Assembly: GCA_963674695.2 (NCBI GenBank)
Contig: CAXXGI010000002.1
Location: 1 to 64,000, forward strand
Source: a bacterium
GTDB taxonomy: Bacteria; UBA10199; 2-02-FULL-44-16; JAAZCA01
Direction: 5' to 3'
Length of the DNA: 64,000 nucleotides
Shown: piece by piece, positions 31,570 to 47,979 of the stretch
How the letters are laid out: each line of letters starts with the position of its first letter
Numbering within the stretch: the first letter of the stretch is position 1
Notes under the pieces: generated by a model
What the model saw: the letters and a program-made list of their open reading frames with translations, nothing else
Databases searched by the model: none
Told to the model about the DNA's origin: nothing
Position numbers and translations under genes: made by a program

Positions 31570-33069
31570 ATGGATGCCTTCTTTCATGGCCTGCGCGAGC
31601 TCTTCGTTCACCCCTGGTCGATCGCGGCCACGATCGTCGTTCTCGTCGCCTATCGATATGCGGCATCGAAGGGGCGCATGCCCAAGATCCCCGTCGGGAT
31701 GCTCATCCTCTATCTCATCGTCGTCCTCATCCTGATGACCTTCCCGGATTCAATCGCGAGCCTTGAGCATCGCTGGGTGCGCGTGGGGCTGTCCATCACG
31801 CTCTATTGCGCCATCGCGCACCTCATCCTCGCCTTCATCTATGATGTCTATTACGGCTGGTGGAAAAAAACGAGGGTTCCCAAGATCACGCGCGACATCA
31901 CGCTCTTCGCCGTCTTCGCCGTCGTTGCGCTCTATGTCCTGCGCACGCGCGGCGGGGTGAACCCGCTCGGAATCGTCACGACCTCCGCGGTGCTGACCGC
32001 CATCGTGGGTCTGGCCGCACAGAACTCGCTGAGCAATCTCTTCGCGGGGCTCTCCATCCAGATGGAGCGACCCTATGCGATCGGCGAATGGATCCAATAT
32101 AATGATACGATCGGCCGCGTGATCGGCGTGGGATGGAAGTCGACGCGCGTGCGCACCTTCGACGATGAAATCGTCTACATCCCGAACCTCGACATCGTCA
32201 AGACGACGGTGACCAATTTTTCGAAGCCAACGCCCATGCACTACATGAACGTCTCCATCGGCGTCGAATATGGCGCGGCGCCCAATCATGTGCGCAAGGT
32301 GCTCCTGGAAGTCTGTCGACACGACCCGCGCGTGCTCGCGCACCCGGTGCCGGAAGTACGCCTCGTCGATTACGGTGATTTCGCCATCACCTATGATGTG
32401 CGTTTCGCCTACAACGGATACGGCCAATCGCCGCGCCTGCGCTCGGATATTCAGTACCGTTTTTGGTATGCCTTAAATCGCGTCGGAATCCGCATTCCCT
32501 TTCCGATTCGCGACGTGCATCATCGACATATCGAACGCCGCATCGAAGAGGAAAAGAGCAAACAGGTGCGCCTCGAAGCACGGGGGGAGATCGATCGCGT
32601 GCCCATCGTCGAACCGCTCTCGGTTGCCGAACGCGACCTGCTCGGCGCCCGCATGCAGATCCAGACCTTCGGCGATAATGAAACGATCGTCGCTCAAGGG
32701 GACGCCGGCGATTCGCTCCACATCCTCCATGACGGCGCCTGCGATATCTTCGTTCGCAATGAACGGGGGGGACAGGCCAAGGTCAGTCAACTCACGCCCC
32801 CCGCGTTTTTCGGCGAGATGAGCCTGCTCACCGGAGAGCCGCGCTCGGCCACCGTGCGCGCCGTGGGCGATACCACCGTCTTCACGATCGACAAGGAACT
32901 CTTCGGCGAGATCCTCACCGCAAACCCGACCGTCTCGGATGCACTCGCGCAGGCGCTGGCCAAACGCTCCGACGACACGCGCGAGAGCGTCGGGCGCTCC
33001 AACGAGGACGAACGCCGCCGCGCCTCACAGCTCAAGGCAAGGATTAAGAAGTTTTTTGGAATGGGGTAG
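31570..33069 (+). CDS. MscS mechanosensitive channel with a C-terminal cNMP-binding domain
   Basis: GLAAQNSLSNLFAG, IRIPFP and FFGEMSLLTGEPRSATVRA. Confidence 0.92.
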   Translation: MDAFFHGLRELFVHPWSIAATIVVLVAYRYAASKGRMPKIPVGMLILYLIVVLILMTFPDSIASLEHRWVRVGLSITLYCAIAHLILAFIYDVYYGWWKKTRVPKITRDITLFAVFAVVALYVLRTRGGVNPLGIVTTSAVLTAIVGLAAQNSLSNLFAGLSIQMERPYAIGEWIQYNDTIGRVIGVGWKSTRVRTFDDEIVYIPNLDIVKTTVTNFSKPTPMHYMNVSIGVEYGAAPNHVRKVLLEVCRHDPRVLAHPVPEVRLVDYGDFAITYDVRFAYNGYGQSPRLRSDIQYRFWYALNRVGIRIPFPIRDVHHRHIERRIEEEKSKQVRLEARGEIDRVPIVEPLSVAERDLLGARMQIQTFGDNETIVAQGDAGDSLHILHDGACDIFVRNERGGQAKVSQLTPPAFFGEMSLLTGEPRSATVRAVGDTTVFTIDKELFGEILTANPTVSDALAQALAKRSDDTRESVGRSNEDERRRASQLKARIKKFFGMG

Positions 33070-33100: not shown

Positions 33101-33988
33101 TCACCACGAACGGGCGGCCGATAGGTCGATAAGCGGCCCGATCTGCTCCTCGAGTCGCCCGACCCCCTCGCGCTCCGGGCGGGGGACCTCCTCGGCGTTC
33201 CTATAATCCTTCACGGCACCCTTGATCGTCATCGCGGTAAACTGGCGCCCGCCCTTCTCGAACGTGAACGATCGCGCTGAGCGCAGCGCCTCATGCGCCG
33301 CCTCCCGATGGCGTCCCGTGGCACTCAGAACGGCCGACATCAGCATATGTCCACATGCGACTGAGACGCCATGCCCACCGAGATGTCCCACATAGATGAT
33401 GCGCGACAGGAGCGTCCGAAGAAACATCTGTTTCACCGGATTCAGGGAGTGCAACAGGTCACGCTGCTGGGAATCATTTATCTTGGATGAAAAACAGGGC
33501 ATCTCCAACACCGTTCGATGCCATGAGCGAGCGACCGCTGCGATCGCCGGTCGATATCCTTCGGTCGTTCGGCACCCTTCGGCGATCAGCTCCGAGACGA
33601 GCGCCGCCGACGTAAAACGCCCCTCCTCCTCCAACAACATCTTCACCCGTTCCAGCGCCGAACCCGATGGCGTCCCTTCATCGCTCCTGTCTCGGCCGGC
33701 ACTCTTCATGATGGTCCGATGCAGATCTTCCCTCGCCCGCTCGCCCGGGAAGGAAAAGGACCTCCCCCCGAAGGTCCCCCGCAGGGGAGACTGCATCAGC
33801 GGCTTGAGCGGCGTCATCGACGACGTCGCATCAGGTTCCGACGACGGCGGGGTATAAGCGATCTCACCGGTCACCTCATCGATCGCCTCGGGGGAAAAGC
33901 CGATCCCATTGTCATTGAAGAATTGATCGATGGCCGCGCGCGCACCGACCGAGCCAACAGTCATGTTCGATGAAGTGAGAAGAGACAT
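33101..33988 (-). CDS. Orphan helical protein, paralog 3 of the tandem family
   Basis: Shares IDQFFxDxxIG...PxxID...Y(T/A)PP and AALxxEL...AAHEALRSAR with its two neighbours. Confidence 0.75.
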   Translation of the reverse strand: MSLLTSSNMTVGSVGARAAIDQFFNDNGIGFSPEAIDEVTGEIAYTPPSSEPDATSSMTPLKPLMQSPLRGTFGGRSFSFPGERAREDLHRTIMKSAGRDRSDEGTPSGSALERVKMLLEEEGRFTSAALVSELIAEGCRTTEGYRPAIAAVARSWHRTVLEMPCFSSKINDSQQRDLLHSLNPVKQMFLRTLLSRIIYVGHLGGHGVSVACGHMLMSAVLSATGRHREAAHEALRSARSFTFEKGGRQFTAMTIKGAVKDYRNAEEVPRPEREGVGRLEEQIGPLIDLSAARSW

Positions 33989-33991
33989 CGA

Positions 33992-35244
33992 TCATCCTCC
34001 CTTTCCCGTCTGTGCGTCGCTCGACCCGTCGCCCCGCGAGGCGTCGAGAATGTGTTCGATCTCCTGCTGCAGCTCTTTGATCCCCTCCCGCTCCTGCGGG
34101 GAGGCTTCCTCCGCCTCTTCATAGTTCAGCACGGCGTTGTCGAGCATATCCGCAACCGCGTCCGCCGACTTCCCGGAACGGGCAAAGACCTGGGCGGCGC
34201 GCACCGCCTCGTGCGCCGATTCCCGATAGCGCGCATCGTTGTAGAGGGTTATCGCCAGGAGCGCCTGCGCATTTCCGATGAAGGCCAGCATCTCCGGATC
34301 CTCCGAAACGCCCGAATACCCTTCATAGATCGCCCGGGAGAGAAGGATCTTCATGAGGACGATCTCCGGCGTGCTCATGCGGTCCCATGCCGCATCGTCT
34401 TCTCTCTCTCCGGAGAAATAGGGCATCGCCTCGACCAGCCGATACCAGGATAAGGCAGCTTCCACCAGGTACCACGACGTGTACTTCCGATTGCCGATCG
34501 ACTGAAATCCGGCAGCGGTCAGCTCCGAGATGAGCGCCGCCTCCGCATGCCAGCGCACCGACTTGGCCCTCTTCACCGCGCTGTCCAAACAGCGCAAACT
34601 CGAATGCGTCTCGAATCGACCGCTGTCGCCCACGGCGCGGATCGCGCTGTCCAGGAGGGCCTCGATCGTCCCCGTCACCAAGACGGGGTCGTCGCCGCGC
34701 ATCTGCTGTTCGAACTCCTCCAGCGGGATCCGCATCTGAATGCGCGACGGAAGCTTCGTCGCCCTGGTGATCGCCATGACATCGCCAATCTTGGTGAACC
34801 CCAGGGCCATCTCGACGTCCACGTCCTCGGAGGGGTGTTCGGCATCGAAGAGCCGCTGCGAGTGCTGTGCCGCCATCTCATAGAGCATCCCTTGCAACTG
34901 AAACCACGTCCGGGGATAGGCCCCGACGACGGAACGCGATGCGAGTTCCTGCGCCGCAGGCCGCATGATATGGGCATGGATAAGATCGGCACCGCTTTGA
35001 TACGCCCCGGCGAGCCTCGCATCCGCCGCGGGGACGGGCAGCGCCAGGAGAGGTTCGGGCGGCGCCAACTCCGGCATCGCCTCGAACGCCGCGGGGTCCG
35101 GCGGCGGCGCATAGTCGACCTCGCCCGTCGTCCCGTCGTCCCGTCGAGTTCCTGCGGGATGAGGCCGATGTTGTTGTCGACGCAGAACGTGTCGATGGCC
35201 GAAACCAGGCCCGTAGCTGCCGGTGGCGGTGTGATGAGCGTCAT
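33992..35244 (-). pseudogene. Orphan paralog 2, frameshifted by an 8-bp tandem duplication at about 35124-35146
   Basis: ATG 35244 follows GAGGAGG. Removing one GACGGGAC unit joins ...PQELDGTTG to EVDYAPPP...MPELAPPEPLL, matching the paralogs. Confidence 0.8.
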
Positions 35245-35274
35245 AATGGTGGTCTCCTCCTCAGATCATCCTCT

Positions 35275-35301
35275 TCATCGCGGCGGGCGCAAAAAAGTTG
35301 C
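35275..35301 (-). promoter_or_regulatory. Sigma28-like promoter 6
   Basis: GCAACTTT-tttgcgcccgc-CGCGATGA. Confidence 0.6.
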
Positions 35302-35338
35302 CCATTTTTATCCCAACCGTCGGTTCCTCTCCGGTGTG

Positions 35339-36505
35339 CTATTTCTTTTTGGGAAAGAGCTGCCGGGCCTGTGCGATGAGCGCGGTCATCGCCCGGCACT
35401 CAGTCGGTGAGACGCTCGGCACACACTCCAGCTCCCCCGCTGCATCGACGATGAGTTTCAGAACGACATCGCCAATGGACTCGACGTCCAAGGGCCAATC
35501 GGAGGACGCATCCCTCCTCGTCGCCAGCATGTTCCGCGCCGACCGGAGGGTTTCATACGCCGCGTCCCGATGCCGCCCCTCAGCGCTCATCATCATGGCC
35601 GACGCCTGCTGGGCCCTGGCAAGATAATACCGGGTGACGCCGTGCGACCCTCCGAGATGTCCGTTTAAAATAGCGTGTGAGATGATCATGCGCTGGAGTG
35701 CCGGTCCGATCCGGCCCATTTCGGAAGGGGGCAGCAGTTGTGAGAGAAAAAACCACGCTCCGGCAGCCTGGGCGGAGGCCTCCGCGAATCGATCCGCATG
35801 CCCCAACGCCCGCCATCCCGACGCCGCCAGTTCCGTCAGAAGCGCCGCGTCCGAAAATCGCTCCGAGATGGTCGCAAACGACGACGCCCCCATCAGCAAT
35901 TCGAGGACGCTTTCCTGTTCAAATCGTCCATGGTGTCCGGCCATATCGATCGCCGCCAGAAGGCGTGCATTCATCGCCAAATTCGTGGCGAACGCATTCC
36001 CCTCCATGGCCTGGCGATGGAGTTCGTCGACATCCCCCTTCGGATCCACCTCCCTCGGCGTGTGAGTGAAAACCCTCATCGCGAGAAATTCGTGACTCAC
36101 GGTCTGTCCCGTGAGGATCACGACCGAAGGAGTCTCCGGCGCAGTCGTCGGGGAAAACATGCCACCCGCGCTCGAGGCGTCCGCCGCCATGGAAAAAAGA
36201 TTCCCCTGGAGTTCCAGCCATCGGTGCGGATAGTCGGCGTCGTCGGTGAAACGCGGGTTAAAATCCTTCATGTACGCGCTGGTCTCCCGATAGACCCGTT
36301 TCACCTCCGCGTCCGCCGCGGGGACCGGAAAGATGAGGAGCGGTTCGATCCAAGCGTCGACCTCCTCGGCCTCCGCTGGCGGCGCATAGACGACCCCGGC
36401 GTTATCGTCGATCGCCTGGGGATGGATGCCGATATCGCTGTCGCCGAAGAACTGATCGATGGACAGAATCAAGGCGCCAAAATTCGGCATGATCGTGTTC
36501 GGCAT
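35339..36505 (-). CDS. Orphan helical protein, paralog 1 of the tandem family
   Basis: AAGGAG RBS; shares EPLLxxPVPAADA and WxxLQGxL motifs with paralog 2. Confidence 0.78.
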   Translation of the reverse strand: MPNTIMPNFGALILSIDQFFGDSDIGIHPQAIDDNAGVVYAPPAEAEEVDAWIEPLLIFPVPAADAEVKRVYRETSAYMKDFNPRFTDDADYPHRWLELQGNLFSMAADASSAGGMFSPTTAPETPSVVILTGQTVSHEFLAMRVFTHTPREVDPKGDVDELHRQAMEGNAFATNLAMNARLLAAIDMAGHHGRFEQESVLELLMGASSFATISERFSDAALLTELAASGWRALGHADRFAEASAQAAGAWFFLSQLLPPSEMGRIGPALQRMIISHAILNGHLGGSHGVTRYYLARAQQASAMMMSAEGRHRDAAYETLRSARNMLATRRDASSDWPLDVESIGDVVLKLIVDAAGELECVPSVSPTECRAMTALIAQARQLFPKKK

Positions 36506-36629: not shown

Positions 36630-38012
36630 TCACTTCTTGTACGTCGACAGAAACCGTTCCACCTCGGGGATGCCACCTTGGTAGACGAGGTAGCCGTTGT
36701 GCGGTTCGCGCTCGGTGGTCTCGCCGGCGATGGGCATGAGCATCAGTTCGCGAATTTTTTCGGGATCTTCGGTCTGCCCCAGCGTCCAACAGAGCTTCAT
36801 GTAGGCCGCTTCCGGCAACATATTTTCGCAGGGGATGACGCCGAGTTCGAGGAGATAGCGACCGGTGTCGTAGACGTTCATGTGCACGTAGCCCCAGAGC
36901 GTCTGGACCGTCATGACGACGGTCACGCCCGCATCGACCGCGCGTTTGAGCGACGGATTGAGCGCGGCGTTGACGTGCCCAAGCCCCGTTCCCGCGATCA
37001 CGATTCCGCGATAGCCGTTTGCAACGAGACTGTCGACCATGTCGGGGCGCATGCCGGGGTAGTAATAGAGGATGGAGACGCGATCGTCATAGGCGGGGAC
37101 GATCTTCACCTCGCGATCGTCGCGGCGCTTGCGATACGGGCGTAGCGCCGCGACGCGATCGCTCCAGCACATGGCGATCGGAATCTCGCCGATCGTCCGA
37201 AACGTCGAGCGATAGCTCGAGTGCATCTTGCGCACGCGCGTGCCCATGTGCAGCAGGCCGTAGTCGTCGGAGGTCGGCCCGAACATGCAGACCATGACCT
37301 CGGCGATGTCGGAGTGCCCCGCGGTGAAGGCGGCGTTCAGGAGATTGCGCGCGGCATCGGAAGAAGGGCGATCGGAGGAGCGCTGACTGCCCACCAGGAC
37401 GATCGGAACCGGCGTATTTTGCACCATGTAGGAGAGGATCGATGCGGTGTGGTGCATCGTGTCGGTCCCGTGTCCGATCACGATCCCGCGCACACCCTCG
37501 CCGATGAGTCGCCCGATCTCCTCGGCCAGGACCTTGTACTGCTCGGGCCCCATGTTCTCGGAGAAGACGCCGAAGAGTTTTTTCGTCGTCAGGTTGCACG
37601 CATCGGCCAGTTCCGGAACCGCGCCGTAGAGTTCGCCGGGTGAGAAGGCCGGCACCACAGCACCCGTCGTATAGTCGAGCCGCGAGGCGATCGTGCCGCC
37701 CGTGCCCAGGAGCGTGACATTCGGTTTGCGTTTGTCGAACGGAAACTCCTGCTCCGGGATGGAATAGTGCCCCTCGCGACGCCCGACCTTTCGAATCGCC
37801 TGAATCGAATCGACATGCACGCCGGTGTTGTATCCGCTGTCCATCTTGATGACGATGTGGAGGGGATCCTCGGTCTTCGAGCGGGGGAGAATGAGGCCGG
37901 CAAACGGCCCCTTCGGCGTGTCGATCTCGACGCGATCCCAGACCTCGACGCCAAACTTCTTCAGGACATCGAGCCCCGGAGAGCGGTACCCCTTGTGCAC
38001 ATCATCGGACAT
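36630..38012 (-). CDS. gatD: Glu-tRNA(Gln) amidotransferase subunit D (archaeal type)
   Basis: N-terminal barrel (IKMDSGYNTGV), GTGGTIASRLDYTTGAV, HGTDTM, GSQRSSDRPSSDA and VRKMHSS. Confidence 0.92.
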   Translation of the reverse strand: MSDDVHKGYRSPGLDVLKKFGVEVWDRVEIDTPKGPFAGLILPRSKTEDPLHIVIKMDSGYNTGVHVDSIQAIRKVGRREGHYSIPEQEFPFDKRKPNVTLLGTGGTIASRLDYTTGAVVPAFSPGELYGAVPELADACNLTTKKLFGVFSENMGPEQYKVLAEEIGRLIGEGVRGIVIGHGTDTMHHTASILSYMVQNTPVPIVLVGSQRSSDRPSSDAARNLLNAAFTAGHSDIAEVMVCMFGPTSDDYGLLHMGTRVRKMHSSYRSTFRTIGEIPIAMCWSDRVAALRPYRKRRDDREVKIVPAYDDRVSILYYYPGMRPDMVDSLVANGYRGIVIAGTGLGHVNAALNPSLKRAVDAGVTVVMTVQTLWGYVHMNVYDTGRYLLELGVIPCENMLPEAAYMKLCWTLGQTEDPEKIRELMLMPIAGETTEREPHNGYLVYQGGIPEVERFLSTYKK

Positions 38013-38107
38013 ATCGGCAACCTCCCGGGAAACGTCATCCCAGGGGGGTTCTCGCCGGATCGGAGCGGGTTGTCAAGACACCCTCGATCCCGTACAATTC
38101 GGATCCC

Positions 38108-39313
38108 ATGCGCAAAAACCTCCTCGTCATCCTGCTCCTCATCGGCGCCACCGCCGGCGCCCTCTGCGGCTGGTGGTTCGGCCCACGCATGGAGGCCGTC
38201 GCCTTCATCGGCGACTTCTTCCTCACCCTCCTCTGGATGCTGGTGGTCCCGCTCATCCTCTTCTCGATGATCGCGGGGGTCGCCAGCCTCGGCGACATTC
38301 GGCGCGTCGGCGGCATCGGCCTCAAGACCCTCTTCTATTATTTTTCCACGACCGCAGCAGCGGTCTTCGTGGGTCTCGTCCTCGTCAGCATCATCCAGCC
38401 GGGTCGGGGGATCGCCATCGTCGGAAGTGTGGTGGAATCGAGTGCCGTGCAGGCCGGCTTTGTCCAGATCCTCAACTCCTTCATCCATCCCAACATCGTT
38501 CAGGCGATGGCGGAGACGAAGATCCTTCCGATCATCGTCATCTCCATCGCCTTCGGCGCGGCGCTCACGACCCTGGGCGAACGGGGCCGGGCGGTCATTC
38601 GCATCTGTGAGACGATCAATCAGGCCATCCTCGTCATCGTGCGACTCGTCATGTGGCTCGCGCCCGTCGGCGTCTTCGCCCTCGTCGCGGCAAAGCTCGG
38701 GGCGAGCGGGGGAGGGGATGCCTTTCTCGCAGAGCTGGCAAAGGTCGGAAAATATACCGCCACGGTGATCATCGGTCTCGGCATCCATGCCGTCGTCGTC
38801 CTACCCCTCATCCTCTGGATATTCGGGCGCCGCAATCCGCTGACCTATGCCTGGGGGATGATCGAAGCGCTCGTGACGGCTTTTTCCACCTCGTCGAGTT
38901 CGGCCACGCTTCCGGTCACCCTCGAAGCGCTCAAGGATCGCAACCACGTGAAGGAAGCGGCCGCCGATTTTGTCGCGCCGATCGGCGCCACGATCAACAT
39001 GGATGGCACCGCGCTCTACGAAGCGGTCGCGGCGATGTTCATCGCCCAGCGCTACGGCATCGAGCTGAGCTTCTTTCAGCAGTTCCTCATCTTCATCACG
39101 GCCACGCTCGCCTCCATCGGCGCGGCCGGCATCCCGCAGGCCGGTCTGATCACGATGGTGATCGTCCTCGAGGCCGTGGGACTTCCGCGCGAAGGGATCG
39201 GCATCATCCTCGCCGTCGACTGGTTCCTCGACCGCTGCCGCACGACCGTCAATGTCTGGGGAGATTCCGTCGGCGCCGCCGTCATCGAACGCGTCAAAGA
39301 GATGCGCGGGTGA
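38108..39313 (+). CDS. Dicarboxylate/amino acid:cation symporter (GltP/GltT family)
   Basis: STSSSSATLP, GATINMDGTALY, ASIGAAGIP and DRCRTTVNVWGD. Confidence 0.93.
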   Translation: MRKNLLVILLLIGATAGALCGWWFGPRMEAVAFIGDFFLTLLWMLVVPLILFSMIAGVASLGDIRRVGGIGLKTLFYYFSTTAAAVFVGLVLVSIIQPGRGIAIVGSVVESSAVQAGFVQILNSFIHPNIVQAMAETKILPIIVISIAFGAALTTLGERGRAVIRICETINQAILVIVRLVMWLAPVGVFALVAAKLGASGGGDAFLAELAKVGKYTATVIIGLGIHAVVVLPLILWIFGRRNPLTYAWGMIEALVTAFSTSSSSATLPVTLEALKDRNHVKEAAADFVAPIGATINMDGTALYEAVAAMFIAQRYGIELSFFQQFLIFITATLASIGAAGIPQAGLITMVIVLEAVGLPREGIGIILAVDWFLDRCRTTVNVWGDSVGAAVIERVKEMRG

Positions 39314-39446
39314 TTCCCCTTGTCGCCTTCCCTCTCACCACGCGATTGTAAATCCAGGCGTGTGACCTGCCCGCCGGTTTGTTAGGCGGGGCCGAGACGG
39401 CGGTTCCGAAAAATGCCTTTCTCCAGGGGATTTCTGTCGCGCCGAT

Positions 39447-40058
39447 TTACGTCTCGCCATCTCCGCTTGCCAACATCCGCATGATCTCGGCGTCCTCGTC
39501 GGCGTTTTGTTCGGCCGCCTCATCGCGCAGGAGGAGCAGGCCGTCGAGGAGCGTGCGCTCGAAGCGATCGAGGCGCTCGGGGGCGGCCACCTGAAAGAGG
39601 ACGCGCGCGCCCGCCTCGGTCACGCGCACGGCACGCGCATGCATCGTCCCATCGACGCGATAGCACAGCTCCCTCGAACGGAGGCGATAGGCATCCCCCT
39701 GGATGGGGGCATCGACGAAATGGGTGTGATGATCGACGCCGTGTTGGTCGGGCAGTTCGCGCGCGAAGAATTCGATCACCTGCGCACGCCGAATGCGAAA
39801 GAGCTCGCCCTTTTCGCGTTCGGCCTCGCGCCAGAGCAGGATCATCGTCCCGTGCGAGGAACCGCCGCCGTCCGGGGCGTGCTGGGTATGGATGTATTCA
39901 TCGATCGCGCCGTCGCCATCGGCGTCGGCGAAGCGCTCTTCGTGAATGATGCCGTGTTCGTCCTGAAAGGAGAGTTCCAGGTATTCGTGATCTCTGGTCT
40001 GCTTGTAGACCGCATCGAGAATGCGAACCATGGGCCACCCGCTAACGCCCCCGGGCAC
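39447..40058 (-). CDS. Orphan protein with an EF-hand-like DADGDGAIDE motif
   Basis: GAGGGG RBS before GTG; preceded by the sigma28-like motif. Confidence 0.65.
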   Translation of the reverse strand: MPGGVSGWPMVRILDAVYKQTRDHEYLELSFQDEHGIIHEERFADADGDGAIDEYIHTQHAPDGGGSSHGTMILLWREAEREKGELFRIRRAQVIEFFARELPDQHGVDHHTHFVDAPIQGDAYRLRSRELCYRVDGTMHARAVRVTEAGARVLFQVAAPERLDRFERTLLDGLLLLRDEAAEQNADEDAEIMRMLASGDGET

Positions 40059-40076
40059 ACGCGCCCCTCACACCTA

Positions 40077-40105
40077 TTATCGGTTGCCGGACAGGTGAAA
40101 GTTGC
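40077..40105 (-). promoter_or_regulatory. Sigma28-like promoter 7 (spacer 2 nt longer)
   Basis: GCAACTTT-cacctgtccggca-ACCGATAA. Confidence 0.55.
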
Positions 40106-40205
40106 GTGAAATTCCAGAATTGCAGACAATTTTTCACTGCAGGGCGAACGCCGCCTCGTCATACCCCTTGCCTTGGAGCCTCCTTCATTCTATGCAGACA
40201 GCCAC

Positions 40206-41960
40206 ATGAGCGACGACCTCAAAAAACTCGGGTTCAAGTGCGGCGTGGAGATCCACCAGCAGCTGCTGACACAGAAGAAGCTCTTCTGCCGCTGCCCCGC
40301 GGGGCGCTATTCGCAGGAGCATCACGCCGAAGTCTTGCGCCACATGCGCCCGACGCTCTCGGAGATGGGCGTCTACGACGGCTGCGCGCTCATGGAGTTT
40401 AAGACCAAAAAGGATATCGTCTATCAGCTCAACAAGGAGAGTGTCTGCACCTATGAGATGGACGACACGCCCCCCTTTCCAATCAATGCCCAGGCGCTCG
40501 ACATCGCCATCGAGATCGCGCTCATCACCGGATGCTCCATCGTCGACGAGCTGCACATCGCGCGCAAACAGTACCTCGACGGCTCGATCCCGACGGGATT
40601 TCAGCGCACCGGGATCGTCGGCATCAATGGGAGCGTCCCCTTCGAGGGAGGCCAGATCCCGATCCGCCAGTTCTCGATCGAAGAGGATTCCTGCCGCGAG
40701 GTCAACGATTCGGGCCATCGCATCCATTTTCGTACCGATCGCCTCGGCATGCCGCTGATTGAAATCGTCACCGAACCCTGTTTTAAAACGCCCGAGGAGG
40801 CCGCGCGCGGCGTGCGCCACTTAGGGCGCCTCATGCGCGCGACCGGAGATGTCCGCCGCGGACTCGGTGCGGTGCGCCAGGACGTCAATGTCTCCATCGA
40901 TGGCGGCGCGCGCGTCGAGATCAAGGGCGTGCCGCGCTATCAGCTGATCCCAAACCTCACACGCATCGAGGCGCTGCGCCAAAAGGCGCTGCTCGGCATT
41001 CGCGAAGAGCTCATCCGCCGCGGCCTGACCAAAGAGACGCTCGAAACGAGCGAGCGCGACCTGACGGAGAGCTTTCGCAACACGCGCTCACCGATCTTGA
41101 GCGCGGCGCTCGAGCAGGGCCATCGCATCCGCGGCATCTGCATCCGTGGCATCGCCGGAATTCTGAACACGCCGACGCAGCCGGGCAGGATGTTCGCCTC
41201 GGAACTGGCCGGCCGTGTACGCGTCATCGCCTGTCTGGATGACATTCCGAACCTCTATCATACCGACAACTACCCCGAGTATCCGCGCACCCACATCGAC
41301 CGTCGCGCGATCCGGCTCGCCCTCAAACTCCGCGACGAGGACGTCGGCGTCATCGTCTGGGGTCCGGAGGCCGACACGATCACGGCGGCAAACGAGATCC
41401 GCGATCGCCTCGGCGAGGCCTTCGATGGCGTCCCGTGTGAGACGCGCCAACACCTGCGCGAGGGACTGACCGACTTCGAGCGGATTTTGCCGGGCGCGGA
41501 CCGGATGTACCCGGACACCGACCATCCGCCGGTGCGTATCACCGCCGAACGCGTCGAAAAGATTCGGGCCACCCTTCCGGAGCCGACAGCAGCGGTTGAG
41601 GCGCGTCTGCGCGCGCACGGCCTCCCCGAGGACACGATCGGCGACCTCGCACTCTCGACGCACGTCGCGCTCATCGATCGCCTGCATGCGGAAAAGTTCG
41701 ACATGAAGCTCGTGGGAAGGGTGCTGGGTCAAACCGCCCGGAGTCTCAAGCGACAGGGGATCAACATCGAGTGGATCACCGAGAAGAACTGGATCGCCTT
41801 TCTGCACCACACCGCGAAGGCCAAGACGAAACCCAAATACTTTGAAGCCGCCCTCATCGAATTCGCTGCCTCTCCAGAACGCACGATCGCTGAAATCCTG
41901 GACACCTTCGTTGAAGAGGGCCCTGCACTTCACGACAAAGAAGAACTGTCCGCAACTTGA
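40206..41960 (+). CDS. gatE: Glu-tRNA(Gln) amidotransferase subunit E (archaeal type)
   Basis: GVEIHQQL, KLFCRCP, DGSIPTGFQRT, DRLGMPLIEI, VRQDVNVSI, an AspRS-like insertion and LPGADRMYPDTD. Confidence 0.92.
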   Translation: MSDDLKKLGFKCGVEIHQQLLTQKKLFCRCPAGRYSQEHHAEVLRHMRPTLSEMGVYDGCALMEFKTKKDIVYQLNKESVCTYEMDDTPPFPINAQALDIAIEIALITGCSIVDELHIARKQYLDGSIPTGFQRTGIVGINGSVPFEGGQIPIRQFSIEEDSCREVNDSGHRIHFRTDRLGMPLIEIVTEPCFKTPEEAARGVRHLGRLMRATGDVRRGLGAVRQDVNVSIDGGARVEIKGVPRYQLIPNLTRIEALRQKALLGIREELIRRGLTKETLETSERDLTESFRNTRSPILSAALEQGHRIRGICIRGIAGILNTPTQPGRMFASELAGRVRVIACLDDIPNLYHTDNYPEYPRTHIDRRAIRLALKLRDEDVGVIVWGPEADTITAANEIRDRLGEAFDGVPCETRQHLREGLTDFERILPGADRMYPDTDHPPVRITAERVEKIRATLPEPTAAVEARLRAHGLPEDTIGDLALSTHVALIDRLHAEKFDMKLVGRVLGQTARSLKRQGINIEWITEKNWIAFLHHTAKAKTKPKYFEAALIEFAASPERTIAEILDTFVEEGPALHDKEELSAT

Positions 41961-46641: not shown

Positions 46642-47979
46642 ATGGCCAACTTGCTCGAACAACTCCGCAACAATATCAAGAGTAAAATCAGCGACTTAAA
46701 CTATACAACCTGGTTTCGCCCCATCATTGACGCCAACGTCAAGGATGGTGTTTTTACGCTCGTCGTCCCCAACAAATTCGTCGCCGACTGGATCAGCGAC
46801 TACTATCAGGACCTGATTCGCCAGGAGCTCTTTCGGCTCACCGAGGCCAATTATCGCATCGGCTACCTGGTCGCGCCCGAGGCCGAAATCGAGACGCCCG
46901 AGGTTGCGCCAAAACAGACGCCCACCTCCCCGGCGATGCCGCGCGTGCGCACGGTCGACCATCTCAACCCGAAGTATGATTTCGATCGCTTCGTCGTGGG
47001 AAGTTCCAATCAGTTCGCCCATGCCGCCTGCAAGGCGGTCGCCGACCTGCCCGGCGGTCATTACAATCCGCTGTTCATCTATGGCGGCGTCGGCCTGGGA
47101 AAAACTCACCTCCTGCACGCCGTCGGACTCGGCGCGCTGGCACGTCGTCCAGAGACGCAGATCATCTATGTGAGCGCTGAGAAGTTCATGAACGAGCTGA
47201 TCAACGCTATTCGCTATGAAAAGATGCCGTCCTTTCGGCAGAAGTACCGCGATCGGTGCGAAGTGCTGCTCATCGACGACATCCAGTTTCTCGGGGGCAA
47301 GGAGCGCACGCAGGAGGAGTTCTTTCACACCTTCAACGCCCTCCATGAATCACAGCGCCAGATCGTGCTGACCAGTGACAAACTGCCGCGCGACATTAAG
47401 GGGATCGAAGAGCGGCTGCGCTCGCGCTTCGAGTGGGGGCTGATCGCCGACATCCAGGCACCCGACCTCGAGACGCGCATTGCCATCCTGCGCAAAAAGG
47501 CCGAGGCCTCAAATCTCTCCTGTCCGGACGACATGTCGATGTATCTGGCCAGCTGCATCAAGAGCAACGTCCGCGAGCTCGAGGGGAGCCTCATTCGCAT
47601 CAACGCCTTTGCCTCGCTCACCGGCGTACCCGTTTCGCTCGCACTCGCCCAGGAGATCCTGGGCAACACCATCGGGCGCACGCAGGACTTGGTCGCCACG
47701 ATCGAGTCGATCCAGAAGATGGTCGCGGGGTATTACAACGTGGGGATCTCCGATCTCAAATCGCCCCGGCGCCTCAAGGTGATCGCCTATCCGCGCCAGA
47801 TCGCCATGTACCTCTGCAAGAAACACCTCAAGACGTCATTTCCAGAGATCGGTGGAAAGTTCGGCGGGAAAGATCACACGACCGTCATGCACGCCTGCCG
47901 CAAGATCGAACGCCTACTCGCTAGCGACGCCTCCCTCCAGAACGACATCGCCCGTCTCGAAAAGAGTATTCTGCAGTAG
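46642..47979 (+). CDS. dnaA: Chromosomal replication initiator
   Basis: YNPLFIYGGVGLGKTHL, LLIDDIQF, NVRELEG and KDHTTV. Confidence 0.98.
   Translation: MANLLEQLRNNIKSKISDLNYTTWFRPIIDANVKDGVFTLVVPNKFVADWISDYYQDLIRQELFRLTEANYRIGYLVAPEAEIETPEVAPKQTPTSPAMPRVRTVDHLNPKYDFDRFVVGSSNQFAHAACKAVADLPGGHYNPLFIYGGVGLGKTHLLHAVGLGALARRPETQIIYVSAEKFMNELINAIRYEKMPSFRQKYRDRCEVLLIDDIQFLGGKERTQEEFFHTFNALHESQRQIVLTSDKLPRDIKGIEERLRSRFEWGLIADIQAPDLETRIAILRKKAEASNLSCPDDMSMYLASCIKSNVRELEGSLIRINAFASLTGVPVSLALAQEILGNTIGRTQDLVATIESIQKMVAGYYNVGISDLKSPRRLKVIAYPRQIAMYLCKKHLKTSFPEIGGKFGGKDHTTVMHACRKIERLLASDASLQNDIARLEKSILQ

Follow-up and report, generated by a model that had tools for sequence, protein, structure and literature searches.

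A bacterial GatDE gene pair without the GatE tail domain and its predicted accessory role in tRNA-dependent amidation

The first 64,000 nucleotides of contig CAXXGI010000002.1 (assembly GCA_963674695.2), from a UBA10199 bacterium of the order 2-02-FULL-44-16, were analysed here and are referred to as the window. They carry gatD and gatE, the genes for the two subunits of a GatDE-type amidotransferase. We found that the pair is genuine and that its GatE lacks the whole C-terminal YqeY-like tail domain. As judged from its conserved core and its distribution, we think it reasonably probable that the pair forms an intact Glu-tRNA(Gln) amidotransferase, which would carry out the classical reaction in an accessory role and select its tRNA without a D-loop sensor. 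Gene identity, domains, conservation and distribution were observed; from these, and from homology to the archaeal enzyme, we infer the substrate, the activity and the role in the cell. Three findings are new here: the tail has been lost across the order, apparently with a single origin, GatD and GatE are inherited together without exception, and bacterial GatDE nearly always occurs beside another route.

Identity of the gene pair and absence of the GatE tail

The two genes are placed as follows.

gatD: 36630-38012, minus strand, 460 amino acids (aa); asparaginase-type subunit that releases ammonia for GatDE and has the N-terminal domain specific to GatD, from NCBIfam and Pfam matches and alignments with structure chains
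gatE: 40206-41960, plus strand, 584 aa; kinase/transamidase subunit with cradle, insertion domain resembling GAD and aspartyl-tRNA synthetase (AspRS), and helical domain; C-terminal YqeY-like tail absent

The longest open reading frame (ORF) for gatE runs from 40173 to 41960 on the plus strand (595 aa), and the ATG at 40206 gives the 584-aa protein.

GatD scored 499.6 bits on the NCBIfam model NF003217 (cut-off 310) and 494.3 bits on TIGR02153 (cut-off 324). The Pfam domain GatD_N was matched at residues 23-75 (50.4 bits, cut-off 25.7) and is followed by Asparaginase and Asparaginase_C. The protein aligns over its full length with the GatD chains of P. abyssi (1zq1_A, 394 bits) and M. thermautotrophicus (2d6f_A, 386 bits), with the motifs TGGTIAS, HGTDTM and RKMH in register; which residue of these motifs has which catalytic role is partly our assumption. 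Asparaginases use a Thr nucleophile and a Thr-Lys-Asp triad, according to a passage of PMC2330236. The model for plain type I L-asparaginase (TIGR00519) gave 373.9 bits, as expected for any GatD; this identification was rejected, as the GatD equivalog models score higher, GatD_N is present and GatE co-occurs.

GatE passed the cut-offs of both its NCBIfam models (NF003107, 528.5 bits, cut-off 456; TIGR00134, 445.8 bits, cut-off 319.55) and matched the solved archaeal chains 2d6f_C (336 bits) and 1zq1_C (329 bits). An identification as GatB was discarded, as GatB models gave 119.8-134.2 bits, far under their cut-offs of 314.8-338. In M. thermautotrophicus GatE, mutation of any one of the Mg2+ ligands His15, Glu157 or Glu184 abolishes both kinase and transamidase activity, as an excerpt of PMC2330236 states. 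Their counterparts in the 584-aa protein, counted along ungapped alignment blocks, are H17, E159 and E186, which are invariant in a 61-sequence alignment. A further 191 GatE sequences are conserved to 90% or more at 79 columns, and the majority residue of the tail-less clade (described below) agrees at every one of them.

An AlphaFold model of GatE, built on the 61-sequence alignment, has a predicted local distance difference test score (pLDDT) of 91.8 and a predicted template modelling score (pTM) of 0.90. Its best folds are 1zq1_C (template modelling (TM) score 0.83) and 2d6f (0.80-0.81, with 2d6f_D at 0.80), followed by GatB chains, with 36-37% identity to archaeal GatE over the structure alignment; AspRS chains are also weakly matched, because of the insertion domain. 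The insertion is present, since the GatB_N match covers 440 residues for a 277-position model and the alignment with 2d6f_C is continuous. The Pfam GAD model itself matches at the expected place (residues 299-388) with 15.3 bits, under its cut-off of 23.4 and weaker than the 42-53 bits of three archaeal representatives. The GatE loop DVRRGLG aligns with V-K-R-G-L-G in both archaeal GatE; we take it to be the positively charged loop at base pair 1-72, a placement made partly from the S. aureus sequence. In GatE, such a positively charged loop replaces the 3-10 turn that GatB has at that base pair (part of PMC2811023).

Neither protein is thus a GatB or a plain asparaginase when profiles are compared, and the original prediction of a real gatD and gatE, with the GatD N-terminal domain and the AspRS-like insertion of GatE, is borne out by family cut-offs, aligned motifs and fold. 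The locus holds a genuine GatD/GatE pair with its catalytic residues kept, and its activity is predicted.

Compared with archaeal GatDE (M. thermautotrophicus 2D6F, solved with tRNA(Gln), and P. abyssi 1ZQ1), the window's pair has both subunits, the GatD N-terminal domain and asparaginase core with Thr, Thr-Asp and Lys motifs, and the GatE cradle with its three Mg2+ ligands, insertion and helical domain (329-394 bits). It differs from them in the missing tail, in a bacterial host whose tRNA(Gln) begins with U1-A72 and not A1-U72, in its coexistence with the amidotransferase GatCAB, and in gene order, the two genes being divergent and separated by passengers with no operon. Bacterial GatCAB (S. 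aureus 3IP4, Aquifex 3H0L) is related through GatB, which is paralogous to GatE and shares its cradle fold, its kinase/transamidase chemistry and its helical domain (TM score 0.65-0.81, target-normalised); GatB differs from the window's GatE in having no insertion domain, in its partners GatA and GatC, and in keeping a tail.

The match of GatE to NF003107 spans model positions 5-562 of 630, and the Pfam tail model GatB_Yqey found no match in GatE even at an E-value of up to 1. In controls, GatB_Yqey gave 49-88 bits in three archaeal GatE and 27.7 and 47.8 bits in two tailed bacterial GatE. We also searched every ORF in the six-frame translation of the genome with a tail profile, which was derived from the final 110 residues of 112 full-length GatE representatives. 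The profile matched only the tail of the genome's own GatB (60.3 bits) and one stand-alone ORF, with no match in or near gatE, and a tail that had been split off or frameshifted is thereby ruled out. In an alignment of C-termini, GatE of the window and its seven closest relatives stop at the linker after the helical domain, and tailed bacterial and archaeal GatE run on through a helix bundle with the motif LMG..M...RG..G. The last 14 residues of the GatE model are of low confidence. The shortening suspected at the outset from the 584-aa length is therefore genuine: the whole YqeY-like tail domain, the D-loop sensor with its GXXAXGX motif, is absent, in a monophyletic clade.

The stand-alone ORF is the following.

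YqeY-like ORF: C2:622169-622639, plus strand, 157 aa, tail-profile match of 34.9 bits

This protein might dock on the tRNA or on GatE and so restore D-loop sensing in trans. It is the genome's only match to the GatE-tail profile besides the GatB tail, and YqeY is homologous to the tails of GatB and GatE, which lie at the tRNA's D-loop, according to the portion of PMC2811023 consulted. However, ORFs of ~150 aa that match the GatE tail region are widespread in the class, also in genomes without GatE, and are thus not specific to tail-less GatE; the YqeY-like ORF is not linked to gatD or gatE, and its binding is only a candidate interaction. We consider replacement of the tail in trans unlikely.

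Conservation and phylogeny of bacterial GatDE

We sampled 22 species genomes of the order and 19 genomes from other orders of the class. GatE was found in 17 of the 22 genomes and GatD in exactly those 17, in two of which gatD and gatE are on different contigs. By family, GatE occurs in 11 of the 12 other genomes of the window's family, in all four and in the single genome of two further families, and in none of the four genomes of a fourth. All GatE matches in the order end at model position 539-567, and every copy is thus tail-less. In the other orders, a single genome of the 19 (G036) carries GatE; this copy is tailed (match to position 611), is arranged as gatE then gatD, and falls outside the window's clade.

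Four related loci, the same ones for all three proteins, show 80-84% identity to the window's GatD and 65-72% to its GatE; YidC is less conserved, at 54-60%. We compared 11 loci of relatives, where the row of G003 is uninformative because gatE was missed by ORF picking, and where a twelfth fetched locus (3 kb) was left out. In nine of them gatE stands beside yidC, and in six of these nine gatD lies divergent next to gatE; the recurrence of this neighbourhood answers the concern that the contig might be chimeric here. Between or beside gatD and gatE the relatives have nothing, a PAS histidine kinase with a V4R-like protein, a 544-aa protein of unknown nature, CbiM, or an FHA protein, and no conserved partner gene was found beside the pair among the relatives' loci compared. 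The gene pair appears to be constrained and vertically inherited, and neither a chimeric join nor a decaying relic; to judge from its distribution, the order already had it before three of the four families diverged.

A gene pair in the process of being lost would be redundant with GatCAB, with decay having begun at the loss of the tail. The redundancy in the window's genome, the missing tail and an operon split into divergent genes with inserted passengers all fit such a course. Against it, both ORFs are intact, the two subunits occur in the same 17 of 22 genomes and are conserved more than YidC, no conserved column has been lost, the pair survives where GatCAB has gone, and the GatE model is confident (pLDDT 91.8). 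Decay is accordingly a very unlikely explanation.

A FastTree phylogeny was calculated for 199 GatE sequences and rooted with the genome's GatB. It comprised 126 representatives of 50% clusters, each 560-720 aa long, together with the window and 72 named bacterial loci, after 24 of 150 representatives had been dropped for their length and eight of 80 loci because they were incomplete. Two clades emerge, one of 91 leaves, all of them representatives (support 86), and one of 108 leaves, into which all the named bacterial loci fall (support 95 for 107 of these leaves); the basal node is weak (49). Six representatives of the 91-leaf clade were looked up, and the four that were named are all archaeal (Heimdallarchaeota, Thorarchaeota, Parvarchaeota/Jingweiarchaeum and Methanofastidiosum). 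All 91 leaves of the archaeal clade keep the tail, as do 92 of the 108 in the bacterial clade. The window lies in an 8-leaf tail-less clade (support 100, with a long stem of 0.37) whose sisters in this tree are tailed (support 91). A quick IQ-TREE run on 49 rows gave values of 100 in the Shimodaira-Hasegawa-like approximate likelihood-ratio test (SH-aLRT) for both the tail-less clade and the archaeal group, and left the deeper bacterial branching and the root unresolved. The eight other tail-less leaves are scattered singletons and may be truncated gene calls or independent losses. On this evidence the loss of the tail appears to be order-wide and of single origin.

The idea of an old transfer, raised in the original prediction, survives in part. 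The pair is a long-standing resident, present in three families of the order; its nearest relatives, though, are bacterial and lie inside a large bacterial GatE clade, and an immediate archaeal donor is therefore not indicated. Tailed bacterial GatDE, found in metagenome-assembled genomes (MAGs) labelled Ignavibacteriota, Bacteroidota, Acidobacteriota, Planctomycetota and others, belong to the same bacterial GatE clade as the window's (48-57% identity). Unlike the window's 8-leaf clade, which is tail-less and divergent beside yidC, they keep the tail and mostly have gatE then gatD on one strand.

Coexisting routes and tRNA recognition

The genome of the window (3.03 Mb in three contigs, completeness estimate 100%) has gatC (67.3 bits), gatA (600.2 bits) and gatB (607.8 bits), all above cut-offs and together on contig 1. 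This contradicts the expectation that GatDE had replaced the bacterial route, and with a complete GatCAB present, GatDE is here a second, accessory amidotransferase. A single glutamyl-tRNA synthetase (GluRS) was found (565.9 bits). No glutaminyl-tRNA synthetase (GlnRS, encoded by glnS) was found in the genome, the best match to a GlnRS model (74.4 bits) being that same GluRS, and the GluRS is therefore necessarily non-discriminating. Of the routes that the original prediction left to be checked, direct charging is thus absent and transamidation by GatCAB complete. The terminal pair is U1-A72 in both tRNA(Gln) genes (CUG and UUG) and G1-C72 in the two tRNA(Glu) genes; the D-loop has 7 nucleotides in tRNA(Gln) and 9 in the copy of tRNA(Glu) that was read. 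The proposed change of tRNA(Gln) identity did not hold: tRNA identity is bacterial, and GatCAB suffices by textbook logic.

An archaeal gene transfer that changed tRNA(Gln) identity to A1-U72 and took over Gln-tRNA synthesis is accordingly the least credible of the explanations considered. It draws on a literature in which GatDE is otherwise archaeal and on an old acquisition common to three families of the order; it is opposed by the U1-A72 pair of both tRNA(Gln) genes, the intact GatCAB and the position of the window deep inside the bacterial clade.

Asparagine can be handled by other means in this genome, which has asparaginyl-tRNA synthetase (AsnRS, 457.2 bits), asnA (403.5 bits) and two asnB-family genes. 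We counted 43 tRNA genes with ARAGORN and 42 with Rfam RF00005, and found no credible tRNA(Asn) gene with ARAGORN (default settings, with introns), with RF00005 or in a pattern scan of the genome; at a relaxed threshold ARAGORN gave only thousands of spurious calls. The lack of a tRNA(Asn) gene despite the presence of AsnRS is probably due to an assembly gap among the three contigs, and base pair 1-72 of that tRNA could consequently not be read.

Among the 17 GatDE-bearing genomes of the order, 11, including the window's, have GatB and no GlnRS. Another five (G003, G004, G006, G011 and G013, with loci L111, L110, L096, L097 and L094, respectively) have GlnRS and neither GatB nor GatA. In the remaining one (G018, 83% complete), GatB, GatA and GlnRS were all not found, and a congener has GatB. 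The completeness of G003, G004, G006 and G013 is 94-97%, and that of G011 is 78%. In all five GlnRS-bearing relatives glnS and gltX share a contig; the distance is at most ~210 bases in four of them and ~3.6 kb in G013, where gatE was also seen ~2.6 kb from gltX. AsnRS is present in four of these relatives, and asnB and/or asnA in every one. GatDE is thus the only amidotransferase left in the relatives that replaced GatCAB with GlnRS. We also aligned 21 GluRS of the order at the site which we take to be equivalent to T. thermophilus Arg358, and drew no conclusion: the window's GluRS has Arg there though it is necessarily non-discriminating, and in three of the five GlnRS-bearing relatives the flanking SERERG of GluRS has become VRVRG near the anticodon-binding site.

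Outside the order, we examined the genomes of 35 of 80 related loci, which were chosen by hand, not at random; most carry the more distant, tailed copies and the label Ignavibacteriota or Bacteroidota. We identified GlnRS in 32 of them and GatB in 17 (16 over the cut-off), so that GlnRS and/or GatB stand alongside GatDE in 33 of the 35, much as another route does in the window's genome; in the other two, of unknown completeness, none of GlnRS, GatB and GatA was found. In the subset checked in one survey, GlnRS was present in 28 of 30 further GatDE-bearing bacteria. Over the order, G036 and these 35 genomes, GlnRS and/or GatB occur in 50 of 53 GatDE-bearing bacterial genomes, a count in which kin are not independent and absence from a MAG is weak evidence. 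The genome of one locus (G041, locus L045) has, besides GlnRS and a tailed GatDE, a 312-aa ORF at C1:574136-575002 that matches only positions 6-296 of 481 of the GatB model (380.8 bits), a cradle-only, tail-less GatB-like protein.

Three things favour a working Glu-tRNA(Gln) amidotransferase as the likeliest interpretation: a conserved core, a conserved partnership of the subunits and an available substrate (one GluRS, no GlnRS). Persistence beside GatCAB, or beside GlnRS and AsnRS, points to an accessory role, which could be back-up, the clearing of mischarged tRNA(Gln) or a broadened specificity. In the proposed mechanism, GatE would bind the acceptor arm of Glu-tRNA(Gln) made by the genome's single non-discriminating GluRS and phosphorylate the glutamyl side chain with ATP and Mg2+. 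GatD, as an asparaginase-type amidase, would free ammonia from Gln or Asn, and the ammonia would turn the activated intermediate into Gln-tRNA(Gln). With neither a D-loop sensor nor the archaeal base pair to rely on, substrate choice would rest on the acceptor end (U1-A72 in tRNA(Gln), G1-C72 in tRNA(Glu)) and on the insertion and helical domains, or selectivity would be lower.

Several observations weigh against this reading. GatCAB whose GatB lacks the C-terminal part is unable to bind tRNA, and archaeal GatDE uses the enlarged D-loop of tRNA(Glu) as a rejection signal and reads A1-U72, according to passages of PMC2811023, PMC2330236 and PMC2943598; a tail-less enzyme that faces U1-A72 breaks both of these known recognition rules. 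In addition, the four most complete GlnRS-bearing relatives (94-97%), which have AsnRS and asnB and/or asnA, need no amidotransferase by textbook logic, yet they keep GatDE, and this fits a different job at least as well. There is a precedent for an amidotransferase kept with both direct charging enzymes, as in G003, G004, G006 and G013: GatCAB is retained beside GlnRS and AsnRS in Bdellovibrio, Thermus and Deinococcus. That system differs in being a GatCAB in a predicted asparagine auxotroph, whereas the relatives studied here have asnB and/or asnA and keep GatDE (precedent from part of PMC4206432).

The different job might be a new or widened function, in which tail-less GatDE serves another amidation, for example of Asp-tRNA(Asn) as in dual-specific GatCAB, or another step linked to Glu- or Asp-tRNA. 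Such a function is conceivable, if doubtful. In bacterial tRNAs, tRNA(Gln) and tRNA(Asn) share U1-A72, and the D-loop sensor is gone from this enzyme; GatDE has been kept in the five GlnRS genomes without GatA or GatB, G011 included, four of them with AsnRS and all with asnB and/or asnA, and GlnRS accompanies GatDE in the 28 of 30 further bacteria mentioned above. On the other hand, no clade-specific change was seen at any of the 79 conserved core columns, tRNA-dependent asparagine is unneeded in the window's genome with its AsnRS, asnA and two asnB-family genes, no gene conserved next to the pair hints at a different pathway, and the 1-72 pair of tRNA(Asn) is unreadable in this assembly. A link to asparagine through alternation of asnA and GatDE was also tried and rejected, as there is no alternation in the order: all seven asnA-bearing genomes of the 22 have GatDE as well.

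Drawing the preferred accessory amidotransferase and this alternative together, we tentatively raise a wider hypothesis, that bacterial GatDE, and tail-less GatDE above all, may not be a housekeeping enzyme. It would be an accessory tRNA-dependent amidotransferase with relaxed or shifted tRNA selection, reading bacterial U1-A72 tRNAs without a D-loop sensor. Even cells equipped with GlnRS, AsnRS and asparagine synthetases would retain it, and there it would clear the Glu-tRNA(Gln) of a promiscuous GluRS or amidate a second substrate such as Asp-tRNA(Asn).

GatDE is called archaeal in reviews of 2008 and 2022 and in the abstract of a 2009 paper, and the parts of the reviews at hand describe its co-evolution with archaeal tRNA(Gln) (A1-U72, D-loop) as having shaped the entry of glutamine into the genetic code (PMC2330236, PMC2811023, PMC9499178). 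Bacterial GatDE challenges this view of an archaeal signature, with a U1-A72 tRNA(Gln), no D-loop-sensing tail, and persistence beside GatCAB or beside GlnRS and AsnRS. As a natural experiment, the lineage bears on the contributions of the tail and of the first base pair, and it prompts one to ask why a second, or seemingly needless, amidotransferase is retained by a cell. Its value lies in the lineage-wide pattern and not in the single window. The novelty is correspondingly partial: no paper describing bacterial GatDE was found among open-access papers and bioRxiv, where the phrase 'bacterial GatDE' is absent, but bacterial copies are many and are already annotated in databases, since they pass the NCBIfam equivalog models, and the window is one ordinary member of that lineage.

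Surroundings of the gene pair

The other features of the locus are the following.

Sodium:dicarboxylate symporter-family gene: 38108-39313, plus strand, 401 aa; Pfam SDF, 416.6 bits
Orphan acidic ORF: 39447-40031, minus strand, ~194 aa from the Met at 40031; no family
ORF overlapping the orphan: 39507-40109, plus strand, 200 aa; looks like an antisense artefact
M23 peptidase gene and then yidC: downstream of gatE; from the ORF list with Pfam and NCBIfam
dnaA: start at 46642, 4.7 kb after gatE; from the ORF list with Pfam

These coordinates agree with the arrangement first described, a gatD and gatE divergent around a symporter gene and an orphan, about 5 kb from dnaA. The symporter is below the cut-off of every substrate-specific NCBIfam model, including DctA, GltP and SstT, and its substrate is not assignable. 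In the 80 related loci and the 11 loci of relatives, the interval from gatD to gatE contains no counterpart of it. The orphan has no Pfam or NCBIfam family and no usable protein-atlas match, and tblastn against the 80 related loci gave none either; its minus-strand reading is protein-like and the overlapping plus-strand reading is not. As the intergenic contents differ among relatives, both the symporter and the orphan are passengers.

The impression of a host-like composition was confirmed. The GC content is 0.61-0.63 across the gatD-gatE region, and that of third codon positions (GC3) is 0.80-0.85 for gatD, the symporter gene and gatE versus 0.68-0.80 in neighbouring genes; base composition of the region is host-like. 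Rfam found only a tRNA-Leu in the window, and a scan for promoters and terminators around the locus gave no meaningful excess over shuffled sequence.

Directly downstream of gatD, at 33101-36505, are three successive minus-strand ORFs (295, 361 and 388 aa) with no Pfam or NCBIfam family, and at 31570-33069 on the plus strand is a 499-aa MscS-type mechanosensitive channel fused to a C-terminal cyclic-nucleotide-binding domain. GC content falls to 0.56 at 46-50 kb of the window, and the cumulative GC skew has its minimum at ~50-52 kb, just past dnaA, as expected near a replication origin.

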